Source of the DNA: an uncultured delta proteobacterium
Lineage (GTDB): Bacteria > Myxococcota_A > Polyangia > Polyangiales > Polyangiaceae
Direction of reading: 5' to 3'
Assembly: GCA_963696385.1 (NCBI GenBank)
Contig: CAVOKF010000007.1
Location: 1,248,001-1,312,000, forward strand
Length of the DNA: 64,000 nucleotides
Positions 454 through 22,027 of this stretch are shown here, one piece after another (the stretch's first letter is position 1; every line of letters starts with the position of its first letter). Below the pieces are notes generated by a model. It saw only the letters and a list, made by a program, of their open reading frames with translations. It did no database searches and was not told where the DNA came from. The translations under genes and the position numbers were made by a program.

Positions 454-1604
454 TTACGAAAACCGCGGTTGGGTGTTTGATTGGCCGTCCGTCCCAAGAG
501 TCTGCCAAATTCGAATCGTCCCCAGCGCGAGCAAAGCGCCACAGGTGCCAAGGGAAGAGCGAAACTCCGGGGTTGGTAACAGCAAAACGTGGCTGGAAAG
601 AGCGAGCCAGAGAGCGACTATCACACTCGAGCCTCGGTCGCCTGCTGGAGGTTTGACGAGAAGCCCAAGGGCAGACATCCCCAGTGGAAGTGCGATTACG
701 GTAGGAGCATCGCTCCTGGTCGCCTCCTGCCATAACGTACGAAGGTATTCGCGAACGCCAACGTAAACGTGTGCCTGTGCGGGGGCGACAAGGCCAACGA
801 AGAGAGTAGTGTGAATGTACGTGGTCCACGGGTACGCGTGCCCGATGCGCTGAACGAGCATTCCTGCCAGCCCCAGCCCCACACTAGAGCAGAATGCCGC
901 CCTTCTTTCCGCGCCCCGCAAAGCGCGCCACCCTAGCCACATAGGAACAATCACAACTACAAGGATGTTGTCAGGTCGCACGAGCAACGCGACTGCGCTC
1001 AAAACAAGCGGATGCCAAAAAGTCTTTGCGTGGACCCACGCAGCCACAGCACACGCGAGGATTATACTGGAAAGTGTGTCCGGAGTGATGAGGCTGGCAT
1101 ACTCGGCACTCACCAGCGTGAACGGCAAGATCGTGCATATCGCGCAACGCTCGTTCGTTTGTCTCGCGACCCAGGTGAAAAGGAACATCGCGAACGCAAC
1201 GAAGGAGGCGATCCCAATCTTGCGAAAAGCATCGAGTGGGCTGCCTGAACAAGCCTTCCAGGCCGCAACCCCGGCCCAGATGTAAAGTGGCTTTATTCGA
1301 TACCCTGGCAACTGTTGAGTGAAATGGTCGGAATCTTTGAACATTCGGCGGCGATACTCACCGTCTTCGTCTGGGGCGTCACGCTGCGTTTCCCGACCAG
1401 CTCCGCATATACCGCCTCGGGTGCTTCGTTTTGGGCCACCCGGTACGCGGCCGCATGGGCCTGCGAGTCGTTCAGGCCATCCAGTGAAAAGACACTGGCG
1501 ACATACGGCAGGAGGTCCCAATTGTAGACGGGGGCGCGGTATGCGGACCAGGCCTCGACGGCGACCACGACGATAAAGAGGATCGTCCACGGTCGCTTCT
1601 TCAC
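454..1604 (-). pseudogene. Multi-pass membrane protein, GT-C-fold glycosyltransferase-like, frameshifted near 1360-1392
   Basis: GTG at 1604 gives KKRPWTILFIVVVAVEAWSAYRAPVYNWDLLPY (TM helix plus WD motif). The reading continues in another frame as EYRRRMFKD...YRIKPLY...TPD...LVRPDN with many TM helices. GC is visibly lower (32/60 in line 961). Confidence 0.55.
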
Positions 1605-2048
1605 TTCGTGGTCCCTTCCGCTTCGGACGCTGCCCACAGGGCGCTCTGACTCTAGCCGCTCCAGGCAAGGGGTGGCGATCTTATTCCGCATCCACACCGA
1701 GAGGGGGCGTGACCCTATGCACGTCTGGTTAAGGCACTGGCAACTTGGAAACGCTTGGGCGAAAAGATAAGGGCGTTGGGTCGGCGGGTGCAGGGCGGGT
1801 CCCTAACTAAGCGGCCCCCCGCGTAGCGCGTCGAACCGCGCGAGTCGCAAATCACGCGACGGATGTCGGCGGCGCTGGGGTCGCTGACGTACGACGCAGG
1901 CGCTCGCTGAGTCACGACGCGGTCGGCCGGGCGCCTACATCGGGGCCATCGGCACCCCGGGGCCTTCGGCGTCAAGGGAGGCTCGATGCTCCGGAGTGCG
2001 TGGACGCGGCGGGTCGTGACGACGCGATGATCGGCGCCGCCGCTCCCA

Positions 2049-3764
2049 TCAGCGCACGCGGAACGCCTCCGCGTATTGCGACGTGTGCGCGTAGGCAGGG
2101 CCAATCCAGACGCGACCGATTTTGGAAACGCACGACGGGTCTGGCCCAACGAAGCTCCTAAAGAAATCCAGCTCGCGTCCGAGCTCGAAGGTGTCGACCA
2201 GATAGGTCACCCCGCTCTCTCGCCAGTAGGCGCACAGGTCGTGGCGCTTCGTTTGATAAAAATCCCACGAGTTCACGAGGCCGTCGAGATTGACGGCCGA
2301 TCGCCCCGACAAGTAGCCAATGGTGCCTGCATTCCATGCGCCCACTCGAGCATCGTTCGGCACGTTGGCTCGAACCCATTGCGCTGCGGCATAGAGCGGC
2401 TCGCGCGAGAACCCGAGAAGCGCCTCTTTTCGCCACTGGGTCAAGGTGCGCGCGGAGGCAAGCAGAACTCCGCAGCAGGCCGCGCTCGAAAACAAGTAGG
2501 CGCGTGACGACCCTCTCGGGCTCCCTAGCGCTCGAGACGCGCGTCGGGCGGCCGTCTCCCCAATCGCCGCGAGCAGCATCGCGCCGAACCACGGCTGAAT
2601 CACGTAGTACCAGCGCTGAAAACTGTAGCCATCATGGAAGGCAAACCCATAAAGAGAGACCTGGAGAACGCCGAAGAGGACGACCGGACCCCAGGGGAAC
2701 CGTGAGGAAACCCGCGGGCGCGTAGCCCCCGCGACCACGGGCTCCTCTGCGCGAGCCGGACGTGGCCCGCCGGTAGCGTGGAGGACGGACCACAGCCATG
2801 CGGCGGGAGCCCCCACGGACCCGGCTGCAAGAAAGAGCACGTACGCATGTTTCATGTGACCAACAGGCCAAACGCCGTTGACCAGTTTGGCAGCCATCCA
2901 TCCGTTCGCCTGGTAGTGCCGATCGTCGTAGAGAAGTTGCACCGACCAATCGCGCTTAATGAATCCGTTGATGGGCAGCAGGTGACCAAAGAAGTGAACG
3001 TTGACGACCATGTAGGACAACACGGCCGCCAGGGGAGGCACACCCAGCGCGAGCAGGCGCCGGGCGCCCGCCATCGTCGGGCCGCCGCGAAGCTCCTCGA
3101 CGCCCAACGCCGTGAAGAGACATCCGAAGAACAGAATGTTGTCCAAGCGAGCCAGGAACGCCAGACTCAGAAGCGCGCCGAGGGCGAGGTGCGCGGTCCA
3201 TGCGGCCGGGCCGTCCGAGAACCGCGTCCGATAGCAATGAACCACCGCGAGGATACACGCACCATTCAGGCTGTACTCCAGCCCGGACAGCGGCAGCCGG
3301 TAAAGCAGTTGAACGTGGACCCAAAGCAACGCCGCGAGGATCGCCCCGGAGCGACTGAGATCGTTGCGCGCGATGCGATAGGTCAGGTCCACACCAATCG
3401 CCATCAGAATCGCCTGCAAAAGAACGGCGAGAATGAGCGCAATATCGATCGCCGACGTGAGCCAAAAAATGGGCACAAGGCAAAGGAGCCAGAGCGGGTG
3501 GTAGCCGTTCGTGGGGTGGAGGCCGTCGAAGGTCGAGCCCCGACCACGCGCAATCTCTTCGGCGATTTTCAGATAATAAAAACCGTCGTCGTAGGTCAGG
3601 CTCGTGCTGCCAACGGTCAGCGCCTCTCGGATACCCAAGCCGGTCAACGATCCATCGAGGCGATCGGAATGTACGCCCGCGATTACGAAGGCCGCCGCAA
3701 CGACGAGGCTGTAGAGAGCCAACCCGGCCCGGGCGCGGCGATCGATCGAGTCATCCGATCTCAT
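2049..3764 (-). CDS. GT-C-type integral membrane glycosyltransferase (ArnT/PMT/Aft-like)
   Basis: N-terminal TM then DDGFYYLKIA...TFDG..PTNGYHPLW; SGLE and LARLD motifs; many TM helices; C-terminal AGTIGYLS..NLDGLVN domain. ATG 3764 overlaps the end of the upstream gene. Confidence 0.7.
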   Translation of the reverse strand: MRSDDSIDRRARAGLALYSLVVAAAFVIAGVHSDRLDGSLTGLGIREALTVGSTSLTYDDGFYYLKIAEEIARGRGSTFDGLHPTNGYHPLWLLCLVPIFWLTSAIDIALILAVLLQAILMAIGVDLTYRIARNDLSRSGAILAALLWVHVQLLYRLPLSGLEYSLNGACILAVVHCYRTRFSDGPAAWTAHLALGALLSLAFLARLDNILFFGCLFTALGVEELRGGPTMAGARRLLALGVPPLAAVLSYMVVNVHFFGHLLPINGFIKRDWSVQLLYDDRHYQANGWMAAKLVNGVWPVGHMKHAYVLFLAAGSVGAPAAWLWSVLHATGGPRPARAEEPVVAGATRPRVSSRFPWGPVVLFGVLQVSLYGFAFHDGYSFQRWYYVIQPWFGAMLLAAIGETAARRASRALGSPRGSSRAYLFSSAACCGVLLASARTLTQWRKEALLGFSREPLYAAAQWVRANVPNDARVGAWNAGTIGYLSGRSAVNLDGLVNSWDFYQTKRHDLCAYWRESGVTYLVDTFELGRELDFFRSFVGPDPSCVSKIGRVWIGPAYAHTSQYAEAFRVR

Positions 3765-4545
3765 GACGATCCGTAGCGACACGCCGGCGAAGGAGAGTCC
3801 GCTTCACCCAGGCGGTGTGCCGCATCGCATCGGCGACAATGAAGCGCAAGCGCGCCGCCGCGACGCACTTGCTGACGCGAAGTGCAACGGGGGTGGAAAG
3901 GTCGCGGCGCATAAACACGGCATTGAACTGATTCCGACCACGCTGACCGTCGGTGCCCAACTCAATGAACCGCGCGGCGTGAAGGAGCGCGTGGATCTCC
4001 GGATAAAGTACTTGTTCCAGGGCAACGCAAGGCTCGGTTTCGACCTCCACGTGAACGAGCTGGACGTGGTGAAGGACGCCGGCCGCCCCCCGCAGCGCCT
4101 CGTACGCCTTTCCCTCTACGTCGGTCCATAGGGCGATTCGTGGATCGGCAAGTCGCTGGCCGCCGAGAAAGGAGTCCAATCGCGTGGTTCTGACAACGAC
4201 GCCATCCGGCGCTTCCAGCTCCCCGTAGCGCCTGTGGAGAGAGCTCTGCCCCCGCTCCCCGTTGACGGTCGAATAGTCCGCCTTCACGACGAAAAACTGC
4301 CCTTCGCCGTCGTAATCCGTCGCGGCGAGAGGGACGACTTGAATGTTCTGCTTTCGGAGGTGCGCGTTGGCCTGCATCTGACGAAGGTTTTCGGGGTTCG
4401 CCTCGAAGGCAAACACGCTCGCCTGAGGCATCGCGGCCCGAAACGCAAGAGCGTCGTCGCCGTTCATGGACCCGACGTCGCAGACCGCCGTAATGCCCAT
4501 TTCCGCGAGCAACCGGATGAATAGGCGTCGCGTGTTGAGCCTCAT
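3751..4545 (-). CDS. FkbM-family SAM methyltransferase
   Basis: VCDVGSMNG, FAFEANPEN, TRLDSF, WTDVEGKAYEALRG, VHVEV motifs; ATGA coupling to the upstream GT2. Confidence 0.85.
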   Translation of the reverse strand: MRLNTRRLFIRLLAEMGITAVCDVGSMNGDDALAFRAAMPQASVFAFEANPENLRQMQANAHLRKQNIQVVPLAATDYDGEGQFFVVKADYSTVNGERGQSSLHRRYGELEAPDGVVVRTTRLDSFLGGQRLADPRIALWTDVEGKAYEALRGAAGVLHHVQLVHVEVETEPCVALEQVLYPEIHALLHAARFIELGTDGQRGRNQFNAVFMRRDLSTPVALRVSKCVAAARLRFIVADAMRHTAWVKRTLLRRRVATDRHEIG

Positions 4546-5504
4546 GGGTCAGGCGCCGACGATCGCGCCTTGGCTAGATCTCGGTACTTCGAGAGCCAAC
4601 GAGAAGGCACCATCGGCCTCACCATGGCCTTGGACGCGCCCCACCACCATTGCGGATACGGCCACGCGAAGCGTGAGGCGCCGAGCACGCTTCGGGCGGC
4701 TGCGACGTGGTTGCCCTGGTCGAAGTAGAGCCCGGCAAGAAAGAGCGCAGCGTCGCCGCGCCGCTTGTGACAAAGCGACCTCAACCGCGGATCGGGAAGG
4801 AGCTTGGCCATTTTGCCAAAGAGCCGCACCCAGCTTCGGTATTCGGCGATGCGATCCAGGCTGTACCGATCCAAATGTTGGTCGCGGATGTAGGCGAGAG
4901 GATCCGGGGTCACGCTGACATCGCTCCGCAGGGCGAGGCGCAGCCAGAGGTCGCAGTCCTCGCCGTAGCGCTGCTCTTCGTCGAAGCCGCCCACCTCGTC
5001 AATGAATCCGCGCTCAACCATGACCGTCGCGGTGGCAATGTTGACGGTGAAGTTCAATAGAGGCTCGACGATCCGTCCGTCGTAAAGGCCCCAGCGCCGA
5101 GTATCGGTATCCGGCAGTGAATGACCGCGCTCATCGGTGAGCACGACGTTCGTGTAGCTCCAGCGTCGGTCGGGGCGCGACCGCATGATCTCGAGCTGGA
5201 CGGACAATTTGCGAGGGTCCCAAACGTCATCGGAGTCGAGAAACGCGATGTACTGACCACGCGACCGCCGAATGGCCTGGTTGCGAACCGCCCCGGGGTT
5301 TCCGCAATGCGGTAACCAGAGGACGACGATCCGTGCGTCGGAGAGATTTCGGAGGTAGGTACGCGCCTCCTCGTCCGAACCGTCGTCGGCGATGAAGAGC
5401 TCCCAGCTTTCGTGGGTTTGATGCAGTACAGAGTCGATCGCCTGGCGCAGGTAGTTCAGGCGGTTGAATGTGGGCAGGACGATCGACACATCGGGAGTGA
5501 GCAT
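4542..5504 (-). CDS. Glycosyltransferase family 2
   Basis: VSIVLPTFNR, DDGSD, RNQAI, AFLDSDD (DxD) and GEDCDLWLR motifs. Confidence 0.92.
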   Translation of the reverse strand: MLTPDVSIVLPTFNRLNYLRQAIDSVLHQTHESWELFIADDGSDEEARTYLRNLSDARIVVLWLPHCGNPGAVRNQAIRRSRGQYIAFLDSDDVWDPRKLSVQLEIMRSRPDRRWSYTNVVLTDERGHSLPDTDTRRWGLYDGRIVEPLLNFTVNIATATVMVERGFIDEVGGFDEEQRYGEDCDLWLRLALRSDVSVTPDPLAYIRDQHLDRYSLDRIAEYRSWVRLFGKMAKLLPDPRLRSLCHKRRGDAALFLAGLYFDQGNHVAAARSVLGASRFAWPYPQWWWGASKAMVRPMVPSRWLSKYRDLAKARSSAPDP

Positions 5505-5528
5505 CCGCGCAGCCCGCCCACAATTCTC

Positions 5529-7070
5529 TCAGATGCTCTCGGCTTTGGGATCGCGCAGGCGCACAATCTTCTGCCCGATCTCGAGCTCCAGGGGACGCCC
5601 GTACGTGCCCGTGGCATATCGCCAGCGCGAAAGATTTCGCAGCGCGGCTTTCCCCCAGCGGGGCGTGCGATGATCCTGCACGGTCGGAAAGCGGCACGCG
5701 AGCACCCGAGCGAAATCCGCGACGCGTCGACGGGTGCGGGGCGTCAGCCATGGGGCGTCCTGGTGGCACACCCATTGGACCCAGCGCGGCTGCGTCCACT
5801 CCTCTGGCGTCGTGGGCAGCGCGGGGCCGGACGGCCCGTACGTCCGCAAGACGGGCAAGTGCGCGATGCCCGGCTCCTTGCGAAACGACACGCGGTCGAC
5901 CTGCGGGGTGGGGCTGTAGAAGTAGAGAATGATCTCGGAGTCTGGATTGATGGTCTTGATCTTGCGAACGAATGCAAACGTCTTGTCGATTTCGCCTTCC
6001 GGGTCGTCGGGCCCGCCGAGGACGAAGGAGAACTCCGGAATCACGCCGTACTCGCGACATCGCGCGGCCACTTCGAGCGTATGATCGACCCGCGACCCTT
6101 TGCGCATGCGCGACAGGACGTCGTCGCTGGCCGTCTCGGCGCCGATATAGGCCATCCGCAAGCGGCTCCGGCGAATGGCCTCCCAGGTAGAGGCCGAGAA
6201 TCGCGCGAGGGTGTCGGCGCGCGCGTAGCACCACCACGGCATTCCGAGCCGGGCGAGCACTTCGAGCGTCGGAATGCTGCTTTCCTCGCGATCGAAGAAG
6301 TTGTGGTCGAAGAACTGCACCGCGTCGGCGCCCCAGCGATCGCGGAGCAATCCAAGGGCTGCCTCCATGCGTCGCGGCGCGTCGAGGATCGTCTGCCCGT
6401 TCCACATCGAGACGACGCCGCAGAACTCGCACTTGAAGCGGCAGCCGAGCGCCGCCTGGTGGACTGCCGTGCGCGCTCCGAGAAAGCTTGGCCGCAAGTA
6501 ACCGCTTACGTCGCCGAGGCGCTCGTAGGGCAGAGGGGGCAGGATGTCCGGAGGGACGAGCGCCCGGTCGGGGTTGTGAACGGTTTGGCCGCCGCGCTTC
6601 CAGGTGAGTCCGGCAATGCCCTGGATTGTGGTGGCGTCGCGGGCCGAGTCGGTTGAGGAGGGGGCCCCGGCGTCGGGCAAGCCATCCAGGAGATCGAGAA
6701 GCGTGTGCTCGCCCTGCCCGCGAACAAGATAGTCGACATAGGGCGCGTTGATCGCCGAGTCGGGGTAGAGCGTGGGGAAGTAGCCGCCCCATGCGATGGG
6801 CACAGTGGGGAACGACGCGCGGATGGCGGCGGAGATCTCGATGGCCGTCGCGACCTGCGGCCCCGGCATCACAGTGACGCCCACGAGCGCGTGGGGTTGC
6901 TGACCAAGGGCGGCCAGCGCCGAGTCCCGGATCGGTCCGAGATTCCCGTCGAGGATTCGCCAAGGGTGTCGGCCCTCGAGGACGGCTGCGAGGTGCAGAA
7001 CGGACAGCGGCAGTCGCGTACTGTGCGGCCGGCACATGTGCGGGTTGACTAGCAGCACGGCCGCGGCCAT
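5529..7070 (-). CDS. Cobalamin-binding radical SAM protein (#1)
   Basis: N-terminal B12-binding Rossmann region (PLSVLHLA, WGGYFPT, RGQGE); CxxxCxxC = CRFKCEFC; DHNFF and IGAETAS motifs. Confidence 0.9.
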   Translation of the reverse strand: MAAAVLLVNPHMCRPHSTRLPLSVLHLAAVLEGRHPWRILDGNLGPIRDSALAALGQQPHALVGVTVMPGPQVATAIEISAAIRASFPTVPIAWGGYFPTLYPDSAINAPYVDYLVRGQGEHTLLDLLDGLPDAGAPSSTDSARDATTIQGIAGLTWKRGGQTVHNPDRALVPPDILPPLPYERLGDVSGYLRPSFLGARTAVHQAALGCRFKCEFCGVVSMWNGQTILDAPRRMEAALGLLRDRWGADAVQFFDHNFFDREESSIPTLEVLARLGMPWWCYARADTLARFSASTWEAIRRSRLRMAYIGAETASDDVLSRMRKGSRVDHTLEVAARCREYGVIPEFSFVLGGPDDPEGEIDKTFAFVRKIKTINPDSEIILYFYSPTPQVDRVSFRKEPGIAHLPVLRTYGPSGPALPTTPEEWTQPRWVQWVCHQDAPWLTPRTRRRVADFARVLACRFPTVQDHRTPRWGKAALRNLSRWRYATGTYGRPLELEIGQKIVRLRDPKAESI

Positions 7071-7128
7071 CGGACGCGGACTCTAGCATAGCGGTGTCGC
7101 TGTTGAGGTTCGGGGCGACGAGAGACAC

Positions 7129-8343
7129 TCACCGCTCTTGGGCCAACGACTCGCCGCGTCGCGCCAGAACCGCGCGATATGCTCCTAACGCCTTTCGACC
7201 GACTGCGGGCCAACTGAGATCGCGTTCGAAGTGAGCGCGCACGGATGCGCGCCGGACGGCAAAGTCCTCCCTCCCCAGACGCTCAATGGCCCTCCCGAGC
7301 CCCGCGGCATCGCCGGGCTGGAAGAGCGCGCCGATCCGCCCGCCGGCGGTGATGGATCGGAAGGGTGCGATATCGGTCACGACGGGTGTCACGCCGAACG
7401 ACAGGGCTTCGAGCAGGGAAAAACACGCCACCTCATGGTGGCTGCCGAGGACGAAGACGTCGGCCGCGGCGTAAAGAGCGGGCAGGGCACGTCGTTCCAT
7501 GCGGCCTCGAAGATGTACGCGTCGTGCAAGCCCCGGCGACCGTGCGATCCGGGCCTTTACCGCGGCGAGCAAATCATCCTCGCCGTAGACCAGCGTCAGC
7601 GCAGCGTCTGGCAATACCGCCGCCGCGCGTTCGAATCCATCGAGCACCGTCAGCGGATCCTTGTTCGAGTCGAGCCGGCCCACCCACAAGATGGCGGGAT
7701 GCCCGGGCAGTGCGTCATCAGCGACAGGCAGCGATCCGATCGCGGTACTGCTCTCGAGGACCTCGTACACCGCGTCCTTGCTGCCGATGACTCCAGCGCG
7801 CAGCCAAGGAGCCGCCTGGTCGCGAACGGTAAACAGGAATCCGTCGGCGGCGCCCAGGCCAAATCGGTAGAAGCGGCGTCCTCGCCACGTTCGGAACGCG
7901 GGAGAGTGCGCATGGAACCCGCCGTGGTCCTGAACCACGATGGCCGTTCGCGAGGGGAGCTTCATTCGAAGCGCGCGAACGATCATGGGAAACACGAGGC
8001 CATCGACGTGCACAACGTGCGGGGCGAGTCGGCGGACTCGGTGGGTCATCCGGCCACCCCAAAACCATGCGGGCGGCCGCGGCGGCGCCGCTTCCTCGAC
8101 GAAGTGATACTGCACGCGACCGTCTGTCACGACCGCGTCCCGACTGAACTGTTGCACGACACTCACGGGGCCTGCGCCCGCGGCGACCAGCGCTTCGGCC
8201 CACCCTGTCAGCGCATGATAGCGAGAAAGGAGCGCCTCCGGCTCGCGATCGGCGGGGTCGAAACAGCAGCTGGCGATGCTGACGGCGAGCGGGCTGTCCC
8301 TTGGACGGGGGTCCGAATGGACCATTTGTCCCTGGACGCTCAC
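7129..8343 (-). CDS. Glycosyltransferase family 4 (GT-B)
   Basis: WVGRLDSNK; EX7E motif EVACFSLLE; GVTPVVTDI. GTG 8343 forms a GTGA overlap with the upstream stop. Confidence 0.88.
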   Translation of the reverse strand: MSVQGQMVHSDPRPRDSPLAVSIASCCFDPADREPEALLSRYHALTGWAEALVAAGAGPVSVVQQFSRDAVVTDGRVQYHFVEEAAPPRPPAWFWGGRMTHRVRRLAPHVVHVDGLVFPMIVRALRMKLPSRTAIVVQDHGGFHAHSPAFRTWRGRRFYRFGLGAADGFLFTVRDQAAPWLRAGVIGSKDAVYEVLESSTAIGSLPVADDALPGHPAILWVGRLDSNKDPLTVLDGFERAAAVLPDAALTLVYGEDDLLAAVKARIARSPGLARRVHLRGRMERRALPALYAAADVFVLGSHHEVACFSLLEALSFGVTPVVTDIAPFRSITAGGRIGALFQPGDAAGLGRAIERLGREDFAVRRASVRAHFERDLSWPAVGRKALGAYRAVLARRGESLAQER

Positions 8344-9134
8344 GCGGACCCACGCACCCGTGGGTGTCGGCCGCGCCTTTCCACATCGAGGACATAGAAC
8401 CGTCCCGCCGAGCTCAGAGGCCATGTGCGCGACACGTGGGTCTCGAAACGCGCGGCGATGTCGAGCAGCCGCTCCGGAAGTGCCCGTTCGAGCCTTCGGC
8501 CAATCAGGAGCCCAAGGGAGTACGCCCCTCGATAGGCGAACTCGTGGGCAAATACGCGACGATAAAGCTCACCGGGGGCCAGAAGCGTGTGCTCGACTCG
8601 GTGACCGTGAACGTCGACTTCGACGATGTGCGAACCGGGTCGGACGGCGCGCCACCACCCCCTGGGCCCGCGGCTTCCATGGCCGGGGGCAAGAACGTGC
8701 GTCACCAGTCGGCCTCCTGGACGAACAAGACGCGCGGCTTCTCGAGCGAAAGGAAGAAGGTCGATCGTGTTGAGCGCGGCGAAGGAGGAGACGATTCCGT
8801 CAAACGGGCCCGTGAGATCGCGCATCACCTGGCCGATGTCGCCGGGCCGTACGTCGACGATCGACGCCGAGGAAGCCTGCCGAAGCTTGCTGCGAAGCTC
8901 GCTCAACATGCCCGACGAAAGGTCCACCGCGGTCACTCGGATGCCGAGGGAAGCCAAATGAATCGTGTCCAAGCCCGTGCCACATCCGACATCGAGGACC
9001 CGGTCGCCGGCGTAAAAGAGTTTCGCGAAATGTCGCCACAAGGCCCGACGCATCCAAGCGTCGCGCTGAAGGAGACGGTCGTAGTCACCCGAGACCGAGT
9101 CGTACGCCGACGCTATGCGCCACTCGTTTGACAC
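8340..9134 (-). CDS. Class I SAM-dependent methyltransferase
   Basis: VLDVGCGTG, AVDLSSGML, FDGIVSSF, LVRPGG motifs; GTG 9134 follows AAGGAGG. Confidence 0.88.
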   Translation of the reverse strand: MSNEWRIASAYDSVSGDYDRLLQRDAWMRRALWRHFAKLFYAGDRVLDVGCGTGLDTIHLASLGIRVTAVDLSSGMLSELRSKLRQASSASIVDVRPGDIGQVMRDLTGPFDGIVSSFAALNTIDLLPFAREAARLVRPGGRLVTHVLAPGHGSRGPRGWWRAVRPGSHIVEVDVHGHRVEHTLLAPGELYRRVFAHEFAYRGAYSLGLLIGRRLERALPERLLDIAARFETHVSRTWPLSSAGRFYVLDVERRGRHPRVRGSA

Positions 9135-9293
9135 GACTGCGGCCTCCTTTTCCCACATGCGAGGCCTGGAATCCACTTTGAATCCGGGGCGGGCCCCGGG
9201 TACGCGAAGAGGGAGTCGCAAGAGGCCAACGTACCGGCTACGGTCGAACACGGAGCTCGAAGGGTGGTCGCATCGACGGCAAGGCGCAGCGCG

Positions 9294-11004: not shown

Positions 11005-11192
11005 CGAGCCGTCGTCGGATGTCGGTGAGTCGGGCACGAGAGCGAGCTTGGATCGAAGGGGGCGAAACCGAAAGGGCCTGGACCGGTCGACCCAACGTGC
11101 GCGCGTCTTTCGAACGACACGCGGGGGGCGCGGCAGCGCGGACTCAGAAATCGCCTGCCGAAGGCGAAAGACCGAGGTACGGTCTCCTCGGC

Positions 11193-12874: not shown

Positions 12875-12897
12875 GAGCTCGGAACCGGAAAGAGGCC

Positions 12898-14757: not shown

Positions 14758-16910
14758 GGCCCGGCCGGAGCCGGATCGCCCGGCCTCGGTTGCGAATCGG
14801 AGGCCGCCCCCCGCGCGCGCAGTTCGTCCAGGCGCGCCGCAAAGCGGTCCATGACGCGCTGCCGGTGGTCGGACAGATGCAGCTTGAGGATGCCGGCGCC
14901 GAGAATCACGTCCCCGCTGATCGCCGCCGCGGCGCGGCGCCGAAGGTGAAAGCGCCAACCCCAGCGAAGGATCGTTTCGAGCGCGGGCGCGATGGGTCCG
15001 AGCGCCCTCTCCCCGAAGGGTCGCCGTGCGACCCGCGGCGGGTCACCCGCCCCCGCCAGGGCCGATTCGGACGCGGAGTAAGCGGCTCGCGGGGCGAATG
15101 CCGGGAAGAAGGGCCGAACCCACTCCTCGTTGCTGCGGCACAAGGCCTCGTAGGTCTCATGACCCGTGAACGGCAGGGCGGACACGAGCTGATGCGCCGT
15201 GAAGAGGTCGCGGTGATAGGCGATGGTCAGCTCGCTCTCGTCGACCAAATAGTTCGGGCAGATGAGCCGCCGGGTGCTCGTCAGCTTGGTGGCGAGAAAG
15301 AGCGCCGCATAGGCCGTATACGCTCGCCCGCGTGCCGTGACCACGAAGAAGTCCACGTCTGGCCGCGCGCCCGGGTTCTTGTGCGCAACTCCCCCCGACA
15401 CGATGAGGGCGCGAACGAAGGGCAACGCGGCGAGCGAGGACAAAGCCGCGCGGTTGCGCTCGAGAAGGGTCCGGGTGAGCGCCTCCCTCTCGGGCATCGC
15501 GTCCACGAGGGGCTCGCGGCCCTTCAGGACGAGGTAACCCCTCGGATCGAACGTGAGAAGTGCCGTGAGGGCCCGGCCCGCCGAGATTCGACGCAGCTCG
15601 GACTCGTCGAGCCGAACGCCGAGCGACGCCGTCAATGCCTGATGGATGGGCAGCGGCGAGTCGAAGATGTCCGCGTACACGACGGTGGCGAGCAGTCCCC
15701 ACTCGGCTGTGCTGAATCCGGGCGGCACGGGGACCAACGGCGGTGGAATGACCGTCTTGCCGGATCCCGTGATCGGGGAGCCGTTCGAGCGGGGTCGCAC
15801 CCGCTCCGGAGCAATCCGTCGGGCTCGTGCCCAGAGGGCCTCGGCGGTGCGCGTCCAGGAGAAATGCTGCGCGCGAAGGGGGCCGGCGGCGCGCATGCGG
15901 GCAAGGCCGTCGGGGTCGCTCAAGAGCTCCGAGAGGGCTCGCGAGAACGCCGCATCGTCGCCGGGCGGCACGAAACGCGGGACGTCACCGCCGACTTCGC
16001 GCAAGGCCGCGACATCGGAAGCGATCACCCCTGTCCCACACGCCATGGCCTCCAGGATGGGCAGCCCGAAGCCCTCCAGCCGGGCGGCGAAGACGAACAG
16101 ATCGGCACCCGTATAGAGCGTAACGAGGTCCGGCTCGGTCACGTAGCCGAGCCAGTGGACGCGTCGGCCGGCTGTCCGGGCCTCGAGCGTGCGTACGAGC
16201 GTGCAATCTTTCCAGCCGCGACCGCCCGCGACGACGAGGTCGTGGCCCTGTGCTTCGGGCCCCAGGCGATCGAAGGCGCGCAAAATGGTGATCAGATCCT
16301 TGCGCGGTTCGAGGGTCCCCACCGTGAGCACGTACGGCCGCGTCAGCCCGTACCGGGCGCGGACGTCGGCCACGACGTCGAGGCTTGCGGGGCGACACGA
16401 CGGATGCGCGGCCCCGGGCAAAAGCGCGATGCGCTCGCGACGGACGCCGAGCAAACTGAGGATGTCGCGCTCCGACGTTTCGGAAACCGTTCCGATGACC
16501 GACGAGGCGGCAACCGACTGCCTCAATGTCGCGGCCATCAGCAGACGCTTGCGCATCGTGAAGTGCTCCGGCATGCGCAAGATCGCCAGGTCATGCACGA
16601 TCAGGATGCTTGGGCACGGCGACGCGAACGGCACGGCGTAGTTCGGAAAGACTCCCACGTCGACGCCCGTCTCGGCCAAGAGGCGCGGGGCGTCGGTTTG
16701 GATCCACAGCGCGCGTACCCCTACGCCGCGAACGTGAAGGTACGGCGCCCAGCGCGTCGCCAGATCGGGCGCCGGCTGGCGGTTCGACAAGAGCACCACC
16801 TCGTCGCCCGCGCGACGCGTCTGGAGCAGCGCGTCGACGAGGTGCTCCGTATAGTATCCGACCCCCGTGCGCGTGGCATTGCAGGTCGTGACTTCGATGG
16901 ATAGTCTCAC
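14754..16910 (-). CDS. GT4 glycosyltransferase fused to a Pol-beta-like nucleotidyltransferase domain
   Basis: N-half: TGVGYY, VHDL, VGTLEPRK, EGFGLPILEAMACG. C-half: YADIFDSPL...SGGVAHKNPGARPDVDFFVVT (hG[GS]...DhD)...CPNY...DLFTAHQL. One open frame. Confidence 0.8.
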   Translation of the reverse strand: MRLSIEVTTCNATRTGVGYYTEHLVDALLQTRRAGDEVVLLSNRQPAPDLATRWAPYLHVRGVGVRALWIQTDAPRLLAETGVDVGVFPNYAVPFASPCPSILIVHDLAILRMPEHFTMRKRLLMAATLRQSVAASSVIGTVSETSERDILSLLGVRRERIALLPGAAHPSCRPASLDVVADVRARYGLTRPYVLTVGTLEPRKDLITILRAFDRLGPEAQGHDLVVAGGRGWKDCTLVRTLEARTAGRRVHWLGYVTEPDLVTLYTGADLFVFAARLEGFGLPILEAMACGTGVIASDVAALREVGGDVPRFVPPGDDAAFSRALSELLSDPDGLARMRAAGPLRAQHFSWTRTAEALWARARRIAPERVRPRSNGSPITGSGKTVIPPPLVPVPPGFSTAEWGLLATVVYADIFDSPLPIHQALTASLGVRLDESELRRISAGRALTALLTFDPRGYLVLKGREPLVDAMPEREALTRTLLERNRAALSSLAALPFVRALIVSGGVAHKNPGARPDVDFFVVTARGRAYTAYAALFLATKLTSTRRLICPNYLVDESELTIAYHRDLFTAHQLVSALPFTGHETYEALCRSNEEWVRPFFPAFAPRAAYSASESALAGAGDPPRVARRPFGERALGPIAPALETILRWGWRFHLRRRAAAAISGDVILGAGILKLHLSDHRQRVMDRFAARLDELRARGAASDSQPRPGDPAPAGP

Positions 16911-16991
16911 GCCGCAGCGAGTAGCTAGCACAATCCGCTGGGACGGGGCCGCAGACAGACGCGCGTCCAACGTCTAGAAAGTTGTACGTCC

Positions 16992-18815
16992 ATGCTGGCC
17001 GAACAAGCGACGAGCGCGCGCGATCCGTTCTTGATCCGCCTGGCTCGAGGCCTGCTGGTCGCTCTCGCCCTCGTGCTTCCGTTCGAGGCACCGCTCTTTC
17101 GCCTCGGGCCCCTGCAGATCACGACGGTCGAGCTCGTGCTCTACGCCCTGCTCGCCGCGTGGGCCGTCGCGTTGGCGTCCGATGGGATCGGACATCGCGC
17201 GGCCGTGTCCAAGGCCATGGCGGCGCTCCGCACGGACACGATGGTCCAGGCGGCGATCGTCTGGGCGACGGTCAACTTTGCATCCGCCCTGGTGGCTCCC
17301 TCGTACCGAAGCGCGGCGCTCAAGTTCGCGCTGCGAACCTTGAGCGGCGTGCTCGCGTTTTTCGCTGTCCGCTCTCTGGCTCGCCGTTCGGACACCGGCC
17401 GGGTTCTGATCCTCGCGCTGTTGTCGGGTGCCCTGGTGTCGGCGACCACCGCGGTGGTCGAGTCGCTCGTGCCGGCCAGTGCGTCGCTCTGGGAGCCATT
17501 TCGTGCCGGGCACTTCACGACCTTCGGTTTGATGCGAGCGAGCGGCGTCTTCGCGTATCCGACAATCGGGGCCATGTACTGGGAGGCGGCGGTGCCGCTG
17601 CTGGTCGTCGCGCCGTTTCTCGGCAAGCGACCGCGCTCCGAACGGCGTGCGTGGGGCGGCGCAGTATCCGTCGTGCTGGGCAGCGCCCTGCTCGTCGGGG
17701 CCATTCTTGCCAGCGCGACGCGTTCCGCACTCGTCGGCGCCGCGGTAGTCGCTGCGGCCATGGGCGGCCTCGGCTTGAGATCCGGGGTCGCGATCCCGCG
17801 CGCCGCCACCGGCGCTCTGGCCGTCGTCGCGCTGCTGTCGGCGATTCCGCTCGTGACCCCAGGCTCCGACTCGCTGCTCGGTCAAAGGCTGCGTTGGTGG
17901 CACGACGACACCTGGTTTCGCGCCGACTACAGGGTCGGTACCGCACCGCATGCGGTCTCCTTTGGGGAGGTCTTCTCCGTTCCGGTCACGGTCACCAATA
18001 CGGGCACGCTCGGCTGGACGCGGGCAGGGGCCCACGCCTTCCACCTCGCATACCACTGGGTAGAACCCGATGGCTCCATGTCGCCCGAGGATTTCGAGGG
18101 AATGCGCACCGAACTGCCGGCGGACGTGCCACCGGGCGGCGCGATCGAAATCGTCGGTCGAGCGCGGGCGCCCGCCACGGCGGGGACCTACCGGCTGCGC
18201 TGGGACCTCCTGCAGGATGACGTGACCTGGTTTAGCCAACGGGGCAATCCGATGCCCGAGCAACAGGTCGACGTGACGGCCGAAGCGACCGAAGTGGCCA
18301 CCGAGAACGAAGGACGGCCTGCCGCATCGTCGGTCGACGTCGCAAGCCCCGATCCGTCTCTACCGCGCAGGGTGCTGTGGCGAGCCGCCGTCGCCCTTTG
18401 GCGCACCCGACCGCTGCTGGGCGTTGGCCCCGACAACTTCCGGCGCCGCTACGGGGCCGTGCTCTCGCCTGCCCCGAACGGCCAGTCCGACGCGGACACG
18501 AGCATCCACGCCAACAGCCTCTACTTTGAAACGCTCGCCGACCTTGGGCTCGCGGGTGTGGCGGCGCTAGCCCTGATCGGCTTGGGCCTCGTGCGGCGGG
18601 TGCGGGCTCACCATTCGGCGAACGGCCTTTCGGGCCTCGCCTCCGGCGTGGCGGCCGGGGCTTTCTTCGTGCACGGATGGCTCGACTACTTCTGGGAATT
18701 CACACCGCTTTTTGGCCTATTCTGGGTGCTGTTGGGATGGACGGCAGCAACGACTGCGACGCAACCGTCAGCCGAAGCGCTCCGAGGCAGCACGCCGTCA
18801 GGGCAAGCTCCGTGA
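16992..18815 (+). CDS. O-antigen ligase family protein with inserted Ig-like (NBR1-like) domain
   Basis: RASGVFAYP, SATRSA, GVGPDNF, HANSLYFETLADLG. Insert: VPVTVTNTG..W...LAYHW...RTELPADVPPG...GTYRLRWDL...WFS. Confidence 0.8.
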   Translation: MLAEQATSARDPFLIRLARGLLVALALVLPFEAPLFRLGPLQITTVELVLYALLAAWAVALASDGIGHRAAVSKAMAALRTDTMVQAAIVWATVNFASALVAPSYRSAALKFALRTLSGVLAFFAVRSLARRSDTGRVLILALLSGALVSATTAVVESLVPASASLWEPFRAGHFTTFGLMRASGVFAYPTIGAMYWEAAVPLLVVAPFLGKRPRSERRAWGGAVSVVLGSALLVGAILASATRSALVGAAVVAAAMGGLGLRSGVAIPRAATGALAVVALLSAIPLVTPGSDSLLGQRLRWWHDDTWFRADYRVGTAPHAVSFGEVFSVPVTVTNTGTLGWTRAGAHAFHLAYHWVEPDGSMSPEDFEGMRTELPADVPPGGAIEIVGRARAPATAGTYRLRWDLLQDDVTWFSQRGNPMPEQQVDVTAEATEVATENEGRPAASSVDVASPDPSLPRRVLWRAAVALWRTRPLLGVGPDNFRRRYGAVLSPAPNGQSDADTSIHANSLYFETLADLGLAGVAALALIGLGLVRRVRAHHSANGLSGLASGVAAGAFFVHGWLDYFWEFTPLFGLFWVLLGWTAATTATQPSAEALRGSTPSGQAP

Positions 18816-20028
18816 GGACGGTCGCCCACGCCGCGCCGGGCCCATGGGCCCGTGGAATGAGGGCGAGGTCGAGGAGGACGTTGAGCACGAGCATCGCCAG
18901 AGCCAACCGTTGGGTCATCGTACCCATGTCCCGGGCCACCAAGAAGTGCGTGAGGCCGTAGTTCAGAAAAAGCAGGGGCATCCCCAACGCGAGTACGCGC
19001 ATCGAAGGGACGGCTCGGCCAAAGCCCGTGCCGAAGACCCCCCGGATGAGAGGCGTCCCGCCCACGAAACACGTCGCTCCGACCAAGAGGCCGAGTCCGA
19101 GCAGCAAGAGGCCGATCTGCCGCTCGAGGCGGCGCTGGATCGGGGGATGGCCATGCGCGCGCGCGAGCTGCGGGAACGTGACCGATAGAAGCACCGACGG
19201 CAGGATCATCGCCCCCTCGAAGATCTTGAACGCGGCTCCGTACAGTCCGAGTTCGGCGTCCCCAGCCATCGAGCGCAAGAACAGAGTGTCGATTTTGAAA
19301 TAGAGCATCGAGCAAAGCCCGGCAAACCAGAGCGGCAACGCCTGGGCGAGCGCCGCTTTGGCCAGCACCCGATCGAGCTTCGGGCGCTCGATCCGCACCT
19401 GTCTCGCGAACGGATGCAGCCGTCGCAAGACCACCGCGCCGTAGAGACCCCCTCCCAGATTCGCCGCGGCAATGCTGCTGCACAAGCCGATGAGCGATCG
19501 AGCCACCGTGAGGGTGGTCAATCCGGCGACGCCAAACAAGAGCGCCCGGAATGCGTTGACCCGCGCTTCGTCCCCGAAGCGTTCGTAACCGCGGAAAATC
19601 GCGGCGAAATGCTCGAGGAACGCATTGACGAGGGCCGCGATGCCCAGCAGGATTATGGCTGCGCGTGCCTCGCCGCGCGCTGCGAACATCGCCACGGCCA
19701 GTACGGCGACCGCGTACGGGAGCGCAGCGAGGCTTCGGATGGCCAGCCCGACTTGGACGATTCCCCGGCCTGCGAGCAACTGCGCGTCGCTGTCGACCCG
19801 GCACCGCGCCAATGCGCGTGTCGTCCATACGCCGAGCCCGAGGTCCGTGCCGAGCGCGAGCAGGGCCGTTACCGTCGAAGCGAAGACGAACCGGCCAAAT
19901 GCGGCCTCGCCGAGCACAGGCGCCACGGCAACCACCACGACCAGTCGGCAGACCCGTTCGAGGCCGATGGAGAGGGCCTTGAGCGAAAGGTTTCGGATCG
20001 CTCCGCCCAGCATGCGGCCCGGCGCCAT
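18700..20028 (-). CDS. Wzx-type oligosaccharide flippase (MOP/PST family)
   Basis: LGEAAFGRF, TDLGL, KIDTLFL...ELGLYGAAFKI, FPQLAR, LIPRAHGPGAAWAT; about 12 hydrophobic segments. Confidence 0.88.
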   Translation of the reverse strand: MAPGRMLGGAIRNLSLKALSIGLERVCRLVVVVAVAPVLGEAAFGRFVFASTVTALLALGTDLGLGVWTTRALARCRVDSDAQLLAGRGIVQVGLAIRSLAALPYAVAVLAVAMFAARGEARAAIILLGIAALVNAFLEHFAAIFRGYERFGDEARVNAFRALLFGVAGLTTLTVARSLIGLCSSIAAANLGGGLYGAVVLRRLHPFARQVRIERPKLDRVLAKAALAQALPLWFAGLCSMLYFKIDTLFLRSMAGDAELGLYGAAFKIFEGAMILPSVLLSVTFPQLARAHGHPPIQRRLERQIGLLLLGLGLLVGATCFVGGTPLIRGVFGTGFGRAVPSMRVLALGMPLLFLNYGLTHFLVARDMGTMTQRLALAMLVLNVLLDLALIPRAHGPGAAWATVLTELALTACCLGALRLTVASQSLLPSIPTAPRIGQKAV

Positions 20029-20035
20029 CCTGCGT

Positions 20036-22027
20036 TCAGCCTCGAAGCTCCCGAAGCGTGTCGCGCAAGACCGCCGAACCTGTGCGTGCGAGGATTCGAG
20101 CGTCCAGTGCAAGGCTCCATTCGCGCAGGTACTGGAGATCCAAACGCAGCCGCTCGGCGATGGACGACTTGTCCCCACGCAGGCCGTTCACCTGAGCCCA
20201 TCCCGTGATCCCCGGTCGCATCAGATGGCGAGTGCGGAAGCCGGGCAGGTCCCGTTCGATGCGCGCGACACGCTCGGGCATCTCGGGGCGCGGGCCGATG
20301 AGGCTCATCTGCCCTTTGAGCACGTTCCACAATTGGGGCAGCTCGTCGAGGCCCAGGGGCCGCAACACGCCACCCACACGCGTCACCCGGCCCCGACCAT
20401 CCATCGTGCGCAGCTTGACCAACGTAAAGGGGCGTTGGTGGAGGCCCGTACGACGCTGATAAAAGAGCGCTGGCCCGGGCGATTCGAGTCGGATGAGAGT
20501 CGCCATGGCGGCCATGAACGGTGCGGTGAGCGCGAGCCCGGAGGCCGCCACCGTGACGTCCACGAACCGCTTCACGGCCCGGCCAGCCCAGGGGTGGCTG
20601 TCCACGCGGCGCCGCGTCGTCGAGGGGTCGGTCCCGTTGTCCGGCGCGATCGGGTTGTCCGGCGCGATCGGGTTGTCCGGCGCGATCGGGTGACCCGGCT
20701 CGATCGGGTGACCCGGCTCGATCGGGTGACCCGGCTCGATCGGGTGACCCGGCTCGATCGGGTGACCCGGCTCGATCGCGTCATCCGGCGCCGTCGGCCT
20801 GTCCGGCGCGGTCCCATCGGCCGCACGTACCGTCCGAGCGAAGGCCGCAGCACTCATGACTCCGCTCCCATTGTGACCGTCGCTTTTCTGCGCGTTTCGA
20901 CGGGCGCGCCGCGCGTCCTCCACGGCTTCGGCGAATCTTCGTTCGAAGTGCCCGCGGTCAAAGCGCTTCGCGAAAGCCTGGAGCCGGGCTGGATCGAACG
21001 AGTGCTGCACACGCGCGAACCGGTCCAGGGCTTGCCGGACCGCCGCCACAGTCGGCGTCTCGATGAGCAGACCCGTCTCTCCGTCACGAACGATTTCGAG
21101 CGCTCCGCCTTCGGCGACTGCGATCACCGGCTTTCCCGCCGACAGAGCCTCGGCCATCACCATGCCGAAGTCGTCGACCCCGGTATGCAAAAGGGCTCGC
21201 GAGTTCGCGCAGAGCGCGTCGAGCTTGGCCTCGTCCACGCGCGGCAGCAGCGTCACATTCGGACCTGCGAGCCGTTCGAGTCGTGCACGCTCGGGCCCTT
21301 CACCGACCACGACGAGCCGCTCCACACGTCCCTGAAATGCGCGCAAAGCAAGATCGACCCGCTTGCTTGGAACGAGCGCCGATACCAAAAGAAACGGTGC
21401 CTCGCCGTCGACGGGAGCGGCACGCGCCGCGGCGCGCTCGAAACGGCAGGTATCGATCGGCGGCTCGATCACGAGCGCGTCGCGCTGGTAATAGCGCTGG
21501 ATCCGGTCGCGTGTGTACGCGCTGTTGGCAATCAAGACGTGGGGCCGCGCTGCAGCCACCGCCTCCCAGCGGCGCAAATAATGTGCCGTGCTCCGAAACG
21601 CGGCGCGCCCGAGCCTCCCCGCCGGCACACGAGCCTCGTAGGCTGGCTGCGCCTCCCGCACGTAGCGGATCGTCGAATGGAGATACGCGACGTGCACGGC
21701 CGAGGGCCGTGCGATGGCGCCCATCGCGACGCAATGGCTGCTCGAGACGACCAAGGCGTACGGGGCAAGATTGAAAGACTCCACGGCGAGCGGAAAGAGC
21801 GGCAGGAGCGCCCGGAAACGCCCGCTGACAAATGGGGCCCTCGCCACGCGATCGATCGGTGAGGTCGTGGCCCGTCGCTCGGCGAGTGCCGGCGACAGGC
21901 CCGCTGCGTTCCGCGTGAGAGTAAAGATATGCGCCTGCGGGAACACTCCGCAGAGCACCTCGAGAACACGCTCACCACCCCTCATGGTCGTGAGCCAATC
22001 GTGAACGATAGCCACGGACTCGTGCAT
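20036..22027 (-). CDS. GT4 glycosyltransferase in frame with a bacterial sugar transferase (phosphoglycosyl transferase)
   Basis: N: VAIVHDWLTTMRGGERVL, SSSHCVA, DDFGMVMAE. C: KRFVDV, YQRRTG, KLRTM, LDELPQLWNVLKGQMSLIGPRPE, PGITGWAQVNG. A possible internal start lies at ATG 20857. Confidence 0.85.
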   Translation of the reverse strand: MHESVAIVHDWLTTMRGGERVLEVLCGVFPQAHIFTLTRNAAGLSPALAERRATTSPIDRVARAPFVSGRFRALLPLFPLAVESFNLAPYALVVSSSHCVAMGAIARPSAVHVAYLHSTIRYVREAQPAYEARVPAGRLGRAAFRSTAHYLRRWEAVAAARPHVLIANSAYTRDRIQRYYQRDALVIEPPIDTCRFERAAARAAPVDGEAPFLLVSALVPSKRVDLALRAFQGRVERLVVVGEGPERARLERLAGPNVTLLPRVDEAKLDALCANSRALLHTGVDDFGMVMAEALSAGKPVIAVAEGGALEIVRDGETGLLIETPTVAAVRQALDRFARVQHSFDPARLQAFAKRFDRGHFERRFAEAVEDARRARRNAQKSDGHNGSGVMSAAAFARTVRAADGTAPDRPTAPDDAIEPGHPIEPGHPIEPGHPIEPGHPIEPGHPIAPDNPIAPDNPIAPDNGTDPSTTRRRVDSHPWAGRAVKRFVDVTVAASGLALTAPFMAAMATLIRLESPGPALFYQRRTGLHQRPFTLVKLRTMDGRGRVTRVGGVLRPLGLDELPQLWNVLKGQMSLIGPRPEMPERVARIERDLPGFRTRHLMRPGITGWAQVNGLRGDKSSIAERLRLDLQYLREWSLALDARILARTGSAVLRDTLRELRG
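20636..20815. repeat. 18-bp tandem repeat: 8 near-perfect and 2 degenerate units
   Basis: 3x GTTGTCCGGCGCGATCGG (20636-20689) then 5x GTGACCCGGCTCGATCGG (20690-20779, last unit with 1 mismatch). Encodes five PIEPGH-type and three PIAPDN units on the minus strand. Confidence 0.97.

Follow-up and report, generated by a model that had tools for sequence, protein, structure and literature searches.

A window of 64,000 nucleotides in the genome of a soil myxobacterium of the Polyangiaceae (Myxococcota) (G000:C7:1248001-1312000; "the window" is the whole stretch analysed, numbered from its first base) harbors a cluster that combines glycosyltransferase (GT), flippase and ligase-type genes with B12-type radical S-adenosylmethionine (rSAM) enzymes and methyltransferases (MTs). 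The cluster is real and conserved, has so far been unstudied, and is composed of two layers: a fixed core and a variable layer. The core consists of a GT4-family glycosyltransferase fused to a phosphoglycosyl transferase (GT4b-PGT), the flippase Wzx, two Wzy_C proteins (Wzy1 and Wzy2), a GT4 fused to a nucleotidyltransferase domain (GT4c-NT) and the radical enzyme rSAM_B; the variable layer comprises rSAM_A, rSAM_C, a SPASM rSAM, methyltransferases, a GT4 and a GT2. The partnership of GT4c, NT and rSAM_B is shown by fusions, synteny and co-occurrence. The reading that we favor, with more confidence than doubt, is that the locus carries out radical tailoring of a short lipid-linked glycan, which is ligated to a protein or to a lipid free of 3-deoxy-D-manno-oct-2-ulosonic acid (Kdo).

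The fixed core and the extent of the locus

Whole-genome searches of 31 genomes of the genus found GT4b-PGT, Wzy2, the NT domain and rSAM_B in the identical 14. The core order—GT4b-PGT, Wzx, Wzy2 (opposite strand), GT4c-NT, Wzy1 and rSAM_B (opposite strand)—is kept in all 12 genomes read, on one contig in eight and broken at contig ends in four. The SPASM rSAM (11 genomes), rSAM_A (9) and MT2 (6) all occur within the 14 core carriers, sometimes far from the core. These counts take in two unpublished genomes, G010 and G042, without which the core is found in 12, the SPASM rSAM in 9, rSAM_A in 8 and MT2 in 5 of 29 genomes; the synteny count leaves both out. In G017 (L107, G017:C248) the core and an amidohydrolase are present and rSAM_A has no match at E 1e-40. 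The core features of the window are:

11193..12707, + strand: rSAM_B, B12-type radical SAM enzyme (Pfam); CxxxCxxC at 11856-11879
12898..14757, - strand: Wzy1, Wzy_C protein of ligase/oligosaccharyltransferase type (PF04932, E 6e-20) with a C-terminal TPR-like region
14754..16910, - strand: GT4c (GT4 Pfam match in the N-terminal half) fused to a winged helix and a putative pol-beta-type nucleotidyltransferase (NT; motif at 15351-15398)
16992..18815, + strand: Wzy2, Wzy_C protein with an inserted periplasmic immunoglobulin (Ig)-like (NBR1-type) domain (about 17925-18275)
18700..20028, - strand: Wzx flippase (PF01943, E 1e-18)
20036..22027, - strand: GT4b fused to a small monotopic phosphoglycosyl transferase (PGT, Bac_transf) via a variable low-complexity linker
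20641..20791, no strand: 18-base tandem repeat, 8.4 copies, coding for the GT4b-PGT linker

The presence of PGT and Wzx (Pfam) is what a Wzx/Wzy-dependent polymer pathway (O-antigen, capsule, EPS) calls for. Wzy2 scores 29 bits against a Wzy_C cut-off of 31.7 and 0.99 to Wzy_C clusters, and Wzy1 has further weak matches to IctB, PEP_O_lig_1 (27.6 bits vs 188) and TPR. The repeat in the GT4b-PGT linker is different in every relative, the linker being low-complexity, 50-230 residues long and often built of N-G-x-H-G repeats. TGA stops seen in Wzy2 orthologues are apparent only and were rejected as alignment ends.

An original prediction, made from the sequence of the window alone, had described a flippase/ligase glycan cluster at 454-22027. 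Its gene set is borne out by Pfam matches for a GT2, three GT4, Wzx, two Wzy_C, PGT, two B12 rSAMs and four methyltransferases. It had counted two B12 rSAMs, which is right for the window; the locus is larger, with a third B12 rSAM (rSAM_C) and the SPASM rSAM lying before window base 1, in a left extension (G000:C7:1241052-1247942, L001:3052-9942) that reaches up to 7 kb before the window and also contains a third GT-C-like gene, a GT2 remnant and a PIG-L deacetylase frameshifted by a 1-base insertion relative to G003. The partial translational coupling that it proposed is real at three overlap junctions, of 4 bases at GT2/FkbM and at GT4c-NT/Wzy1 and of 14 bases at FkbM/GT-C, with a gap of 7 bases at PGT/Wzx; the 15 genes nevertheless lie in seven alternating-strand blocks and form no single operon. 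As it stated for the window, no Wzz/Wzc/Wza, nucleoside diphosphate (NDP)-sugar synthesis, polyketide synthase/nonribosomal peptide synthetase or cyclase families were found in the 20 + 13 + 50 open reading frames scanned (locus, left extension and rest of the window). For the co-polymerase (Wzz/Wzc) and outer-membrane polysaccharide export (OPX) families, this negative covers the frames at the locus and window, the remaining genome not having been searched for them.

GT4c, the nucleotidyltransferase domain and rSAM_B

Three independent kinds of link—fusions, synteny and co-occurrence—join GT4c, NT and rSAM_B. Long rSAM_B homologues number 215; in all 120 of those listed a GT4 comes first in a fusion, and this GT4 is most similar to GT4c (33-40% identity, median 197 bits), far above GT4a or GT4b; the named carriers belong to Vicinamibacterales and Terriglobia. 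In an acidobacterial locus (L083), a GT4-rSAM_B fusion has an unfused NT, two Wzx genes, Wzy2 and the variable layer as neighbors. In five of the eight Myxococcota rSAM_B loci read, NT stands immediately before rSAM_B; in the other three it is found on a different contig. Of 301 genomes sampled evenly across the phylum, 21 carry NT and 13 carry rSAM_B, and all 13 are among the 21. At 31 distant rSAM_B loci, 19 have a nucleotidyltransferase, 2 of NT type and 17 of the NTP_transf_5 family, never both.

The NT domain of the host protein has no Pfam match; 17 of 39 homologues match Polbeta (E up to 0.1), and there is a weak profile match to MNT antitoxin (E 0.03). Within its S-G-x...D-x-D motif, G116, D128 and D130 are invariant in 28 aligned sequences and S115 is nearly so, and an invariant Asn (C-x-N) follows the metal-binding motif. 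The predicted structure (pLDDT 89) places an N-terminal winged helix before the S-G...D-x-D domain, and VIA-align returned rows only over the winged helix (Z up to 8.4, rmsd 2.2, 66 aligned). We regard NT as a putative pol-beta-type nucleotidyltransferase domain, the sub-threshold Polbeta, MNT and AadA matches pointing to minimal nucleotidyltransferases and AadA; the domain called in the original prediction is supported by the invariant motif and these matches. PDB searches with GT4c and with Wzy1 gave nothing specific.

The variable layer and the radical enzymes

The remaining genes of the locus are:

G000:C7:1241052-1242515: rSAM_C, third B12-type rSAM (Pfam B12-binding + Radical_SAM)
454..1697, - strand: GT-C-like membrane protein, frameshifted (N-terminus in the frame at 1293-1697, remainder in that at 454-1668); no Pfam family; peripheral
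2049..3764, - strand: GT-C-like membrane glycosyltransferase candidate with a YDDG loop motif; PMT_2 E 0.008 (Pfam), NF047440 E 3e-4; peripheral
3751..4545, - strand: FkbM-family methyltransferase (PF05050 E 6e-14; TIGR01444 above cut-off); near rSAM_A at 3 of 80 loci; peripheral
4542..5504, - strand: GT2 glycosyltransferase (Pfam), overlapping FkbM by 4 bases; 16 of 80 loci
5529..7070, - strand: rSAM_A, B12-binding radical SAM enzyme (Pfam B12-binding + Radical_SAM); CxxxCxxC at 6420-6443; variable layer
7129..8424, - strand: GT4a glycosyltransferase (Pfam); 28 of 80 loci; variable layer
8340..9134, - strand: MT1, class I SAM methyltransferase (Pfam); 38 of 80 loci; variable layer
9264..10016, + strand: MT2, HemK/MTS-like methyltransferase (Pfam); NIPF motif in the host copy
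10068..11037, - strand: MT3, zinc ribbon (two CxxC) and class I methyltransferase (Pfam), split by a 1-base insertion near 10578

The variable layer recurs in about eight phyla, and homologues of rSAM_A occur in at least 592 confirmed stretches of GTDB genomes. The best 80, which are biased to close relatives and of which two are the same DNA as loci of the genus, come from Myxococcota, Acidobacteriota, Chloroflexota, Armatimonadota, Planctomycetota, Gemmatimonadota and Pseudomonadota. Within 10 kb of rSAM_A at these 80 loci, tblastn and hidden Markov model passes recovered, besides the GT2, GT4a and MT1 counts above, MT2 at 37, the SPASM rSAM at 34, rSAM_B at 31, rSAM_C and MT3 at 17 each, and, by direct homology, Wzx at 3, PGT at 1 and GT-C at none; FkbM and the GT-C-like genes are no conserved partners of rSAM_A. 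By gene-caller labels at 79 loci (one locus has no called genes), GT4a is the most frequent downstream and MT2 the most frequent upstream neighbor. Further families recur at the distant loci—a fourth B12 rSAM, a BioC-like methyltransferase (MT4) paired with an amidohydrolase, another GT4, an HprK-like kinase and NTP_transf_5—none of which, the HprK and NTP_transf_5 orthologues included, was found in G000. A glycosyltransferase is present at 36 of the 44 long rSAM_A loci, and in a Rhodanobacter locus (L066) the cassette lies directly after a Wzx/GT2/Wzz cluster. The linkage to glycan genes that the original prediction expected in other genomes holds.

MT2 and the MT4-amidohydrolase pair occupy 38 and 24 of the 79 labelled loci, with an overlap of 0, and within the genus MT2 and the amidohydrolase share no genome. 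On rSAM_A trees (quick and FastTree) the two swap four times; an independent-pairs test was non-significant, with too few pairs (median p 1), and the mutual exclusion is a lead only. Cultured carriers of the variable layer are Pelomonas sp. Root1217, Paucibacter sp. DJ2R-2, Roseateles sp. NT4 and Rhodanobacter glycinis S10. Protein P0129 is a natural rSAM_A-methyltransferase fusion, and a Gemmatimonadota locus with Wzc-like, PGT, rSAM_B and rSAM_A genes encodes a 1368-residue protein with Wzx and Wzy_C domains (L073:2718-6824). In Sphaerotilaceae (flanks of L064, L065 and L078) the cassette adjoins a subtilase/anti-sigma/cytochrome-like set, and in Steroidobacteraceae (flanks of L076, L077, L080, L088 and L090) it adjoins ccm cytochrome c maturation genes, as judged from sequence starts and one Pfam match.

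All three B12-type enzymes carry CxxxCxxC, kept in 30/30, 32/32 and 16/16 relatives of rSAM_A, rSAM_B and rSAM_C, respectively, and exceed the PF02310 B12-binding cut-off of 32.1 bits (43, 35.1 and 71.9), with mutual identities of 24-35%. Their top-scoring NCBIfam models are HpnJ and BchE, and together with the GT2 and the deacetylase they parallel HpnI/HpnK/HpnJ, which could suggest diverged HpnJ/HpnP-like hopanoid enzymes or Fom3/PhpK-like phosphonate methylases. This is very improbable and largely refuted, since every score falls below one third of its cut-off: for rSAM_A, rSAM_B and rSAM_C, respectively, HpnJ (TIGR03471) gives 80.7, 86 and 131.1 bits against 577.6, BchE (TIGR02026) 77.4, 82 and 149.3 against 481.35, HpnR (TIGR04367) 18.8, 64.8 and 96.1 against 650, and AprD4 (NF033070) 30.2, 64.1 and 69.8 against 500. 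No NCBIfam model reached its cut-off with any of the three, and the NCBIfam output included no HpnP model. The sole triterpene cyclase found in G000 (C8:421148-423136) has a DCTAE motif, which we take to be the oxidosqualene (sterol-type) cyclase motif, and both PEP_mutase-family matches in G000 carry what is presumably the PrpB/ICL motif and neither the presumed PepM motif. Neither B12 rSAM of the window reaches the cut-off of a characterised family such as HpnJ or BchE, membership of which the original prediction had flagged as telling against it, and the labels BchE or YgiQ borne by thousands of these proteins in databases are wrong.

The structural model of rSAM_A (pLDDT 91.5) matches TsrM, OxsB, CysS, AprD4, MgmA and TokK at 13-18% identity, none clearly best, with E values of 4e-22 to 4e-16 for TsrM, OxsB, CysS and TokK. 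Base-off cobalamin binding is associated in the accessible text of PMC9204698 with three motifs, G-x-S/T-x-Z, Gly-Gly and Gly-Glu. All three are intact in rSAM_A (GVTVM, i.e., G-x-T-x-M; GG; GE), and rSAM_C has GLYTN, with Tyr where Ser is expected, GG and GE, so that methylation by these two enzymes is plausible from their motifs. rSAM_B has a deviant cobalamin-type domain (D-x-F-N-x-x-T/S-K-M-C and A/S-G-x-D-x-x-D) in which the GG site has one Gly alone (of 32 relatives, 1 is GG-type), GE is retained, a 7-residue insert is present, and K-M-C is invariant; Cys84 in this domain is invariant. In a profile alignment, its T/S-x-M may be the shifted downstream motif after the insert. Its best PDB sequence match is AprD4 (E 6e-15), the likeness being limited to the radical SAM barrel, and the AprD4 B12-like domain does not bind cobalamin according to the accessible text of PMC12931638. 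Because the cobalamin-type domain of rSAM_B departs from the base-off motifs, C-methylation by this enzyme appears doubtful. We lean to a non-methylating rearrangement or dehydration without holding it to be established, keep C-methylation as a serious though questionable contender, and consider other chemistry unlikely. The accessible portions of PMC9407657, PMC9204698 and PMC13331322 yielded no sequence rule separating methylases from non-methylases. Since G000 has MetH and no CobS match, it uses B12 and probably salvages it.

The NPPF/Y motif marks N-methyltransferases. MT2 has NIPF in the host and NPPF/Y in 26 of 27 relatives, and is likely an N-methyltransferase; the HemK-family enzyme AprI N-methylates an amino sugar, according to the accessible text of PMC9338882. 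MT3 is intact in four relatives (G003, G005, G016 and G024) and the inserted base is missing in contigs of short-read runs X1 and X3, one run at 6.3 of 9.9 depth; hence, the frameshift is an assembly error or a strain-level lesion. A contig of run X1, otherwise nearly identical, has many differences across MT3 (window 10149-10813), which suggests strain-level recombination. The two GT-C-like proteins of the original prediction are weak calls: that at 2049-3764 rests on its PMT_2 match and has a 57% identical gene in G003, and that at 454-1697, which has no counterpart in G003 or the other relatives searched, is probably a pseudogene; an independent contig shows no indel there.

A GH26 gene borders the locus on its left side, an RND pump on its right. 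Its left flank has a GC content of 0.63, compared with 0.685 for the core, and this low GC and its decaying genes fit the expectation for a variable region. A database protein with 96% identity carries the name Polyangiaceae, and near-identical DNA is present in soil, peat and wetland metagenomes; contigs from RNA runs overlap several cluster genes, which is no demonstration of transcription. The RND efflux pair (MFP and AcrB-type, window 22133-26430; the AcrB gene is frameshifted near 24370) is adjacent in G003 also, yet lies outside the conserved core. Elsewhere in the window are ordinary genes for a GH2 with a carbohydrate-binding domain (29511-32090), a cytochrome P450 (44895-46874), a DDE transposase (49274-50053) and a polysaccharide-lyase-like protein (62061-63098).

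A proposed pathway, its rivals and its relatives

In the pathway we propose, the locus would build a short undecaprenyl-diphosphate-linked oligosaccharide with a radical-modified residue and attach it to a surface acceptor. From what is known of the families, PGT would load a sugar-1-phosphate on the lipid carrier and the fused GT4b would add a second sugar. NT would then activate or cap a sugar or phospho-intermediate with a nucleotide, in an order and by a chemistry that we infer; rSAM_B would alter the carbon skeleton of this intermediate via a 5'-deoxyadenosyl radical, and GT4c would install it. rSAM_A and rSAM_C, most likely cobalamin C-methylases, would decorate the glycan, the PIG-L deacetylase would free an amine for N-methylation by MT2, and the other methyltransferases would add O-methyl groups. 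Finally, Wzx would flip the unit and one or both Wzy_C proteins, judging by their family, would transfer it en bloc to a protein or a Kdo-free lipid. The C-/O-methylated or rearranged short glycan of the original prediction is thus partly supported, C-methylation being unproven and, for rSAM_B, doubtful as said.

As to the acceptor, KdsA and WaaA have no match in G000 (96% complete), which has LpxB, LpxC and LpxK, and WaaA is found in 1 of the 31 genus genomes and in none of the 14 core carriers; the genus may make Kdo-free lipid A. Relatives of Wzy2 are common in Chloroflexota (e.g., L050), bacteria that are not known to have lipopolysaccharide. For both reasons, a Kdo-linked core is an unlikely acceptor. 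Two candidates remain: O-glycosylation of a protein or, as in cyanobacteria, a lipid free of Kdo, on which the weak IctB match of Wzy1 bears. Because the locus has no co-polymerase, its product is more likely a short glycan than a polymer, although one of the Wzy_C proteins could be a polymerase.

Several observations weigh against this pathway. Of the 44 long rSAM_A loci, only 9 carry one of Wzx, Wzm/Wzt, Wzy_C, PGT or Wzz inside 10 kb, a number that rises to 21 when an MsbA-like ABC exporter, for which a PDB search returned generic ABCB proteins alone, is included, and 8 of the 44 lack a glycosyltransferase. These figures are the chief result against the view that the entire block always serves a flippase/ligase pathway. 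Neither nucleotidyltransferase lies within the stretch fetched at 12 of the 31 distant rSAM_B loci, and in the five Myxococcota loci with adjacent NT and rSAM_B no match to the Wzx and PGT queries was found. The members of the genus are kin rather than independent, and the 14 of 14 pattern may go back to a single acquisition that was then inherited vertically. The Foldseek matches of NT are sub-threshold (best E 0.087, led by AadA and MNT), and its closest fold rows include protein AMPylases. The locus has no NDP-sugar synthesis genes, and the product, the substrate and the expression of the cluster are presumed. The single glycan-methylation block of the original prediction accordingly divides: rSAM_B and NT are fixed flippase/ligase partners, whereas rSAM_A and the four methyltransferases are variable.

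The many distant rSAM_A loci without export genes are what would be expected if the rSAM/methyltransferase cassette made a small soluble glycoside or nucleoside-like metabolite, by the logic of aminoglycosides or of the glycolipid moenomycin, and were merely located in glycan islands whose flippase/ligase genes serve an ordinary glycan. AprD4, OxsB, TokK and CysS, all from secondary metabolism, are among the closest relatives of solved structure, judged by sequence and by fold, and other versions of the cassette come with a kinase, amidohydrolase and NTP_transf_5. We nevertheless consider this unlikely: within the genus, rSAM_B always comes with the PGT/Wzx/Wzy_C core; in another phylum it forms a fusion with the GT4 of the core; and the loci show no recurrent scaffold synthase, resistance gene or dedicated exporter.

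Improbable, too, is a scheme in which the enzymes modify the acceptor, a protein, peptide or lipid aglycone that is then glycosylated, through rSAM C-methylation, HemK-type glutamine methylation and a kinase with NTP_transf_5 as in phosphoglycosylated lasso peptides, the winged-helix NT perhaps being a regulatory protein AMPylase. It would account for the HemK-like MT2, the HprK-like kinase and NTP_transf_5 that recur in distant loci, the resemblance of NT to MNT antitoxins, and top fold matches (TsrM and MgmA) that act on amino acids. Among clustered neighbors of at least 90 aa, however, neither a conserved small precursor nor a PqqD/RRE or peptidase family is seen; HprK and NTP_transf_5 have no orthologue in G000; and the GT4 fusions, being cytoplasmic, suggest that the sugar intermediate is cytoplasmic too.

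Tailoring of a lipid-linked glycan, the reading we prefer, has partial precedents. Cobalamin-type rSAM enzymes have known roles in the chemistry of antibiotics, cofactors, proteins and lipids. In fosfomycin biosynthesis, nucleotidyl activation by the Fom1 cytidylyltransferase domain precedes the B12-rSAM chemistry of Fom3; the logic is the same, but the NT fold here is putatively of the different, pol-beta type, and no PepM motif was found in G000. HpnI/HpnK/HpnJ and the calditol synthase Cds, as described in the accessible text of PMC13459092, apply a B12-type rSAM to a lipid-bound sugar, the former with a glycosyltransferase and a deacetylase upstream. The present locus differs in that its rSAMs are not HpnJ by score, no squalene-hopene cyclase was found in G000, and a PGT/Wzx/Wzy_C pathway with a nucleotidyltransferase is joined by three to four rSAMs. 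MoeK5 (moenomycin), GenK, GenD1 and Fms7, class B single-methyl C-methylases, share the domain order and cluster motif as far as the accessible text of PMC9204698 describes them; compared by description rather than by sequence, they belong to antibiotic pathways, here to an apparent envelope glycan. From apramycin come AprD4, a sugar diol dehydratase that is the best PDB match of rSAM_B but scores 64 bits against a cut-off of 500, and AprI, of the HemK family like MT2.

Wzx-dependent pathways ending in WaaL or an O-oligosaccharyltransferase share the monotopic PGT, GT4s, Wzx and Wzy_C; here, in contrast, there are two Wzy_C proteins with TPR-like and Ig-like domains and a fixed rSAM partner, no Wzz/Wzc/Wza in the locus, and WaaA was not found in 30 of the 31 genus genomes. 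The likewise uncharacterised TIGR04290/TIGR04295 rhizobial cassette also places a B12 rSAM and a methyltransferase in a sugar-assembly cassette, with scores of 59 (rSAM_B) and 83 bits (rSAM_C) against 400 and of 27 bits (MT2) against 300. By the tests run, the cluster appears to belong to none of these systems and to resemble rSAM sugar tailoring grafted onto a Wzx/ligase pathway. In agreement with the original prediction, which knew of no characterised pathway with this combination, we found no description of B12-type rSAMs in a flippase/ligase glycan pathway in the literature searched, mostly open-access text without supplements, in which database-level mentions could be missed. What the analysis adds is a core that does not vary, the pair of fusions GT4c-rSAM_B and GT4c-NT, a background free of Kdo and the cultured carriers.

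Tentatively, and as a proposal that could well prove wrong, GT4c, NT and rSAM_B may form an undescribed three-enzyme unit that rebuilds, by radical chemistry, the carbon skeleton of a sugar linked to a nucleotide or a lipid. The reaction would be a ring contraction, a deoxygenation or a C-C coupling and not a simple methylation. Up to three more B12 rSAMs, a SPASM rSAM and methyltransferase modules that can replace one another would be combined in varying sets to diversify the sugar. The outcome would be a new class of surface glycans, tailored by radicals and borne by glycoproteins or Kdo-free lipids in many phyla of the soil. The analysis narrows the problem to a small testable unit, GT4c, NT and rSAM_B, that exists as natural fusion proteins; the cluster as a whole probably makes a chemically unusual sugar. 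If true, bacteria would have a further, new way of placing unusual sugars on their surfaces, which would matter for recognition by soil phages and predators.

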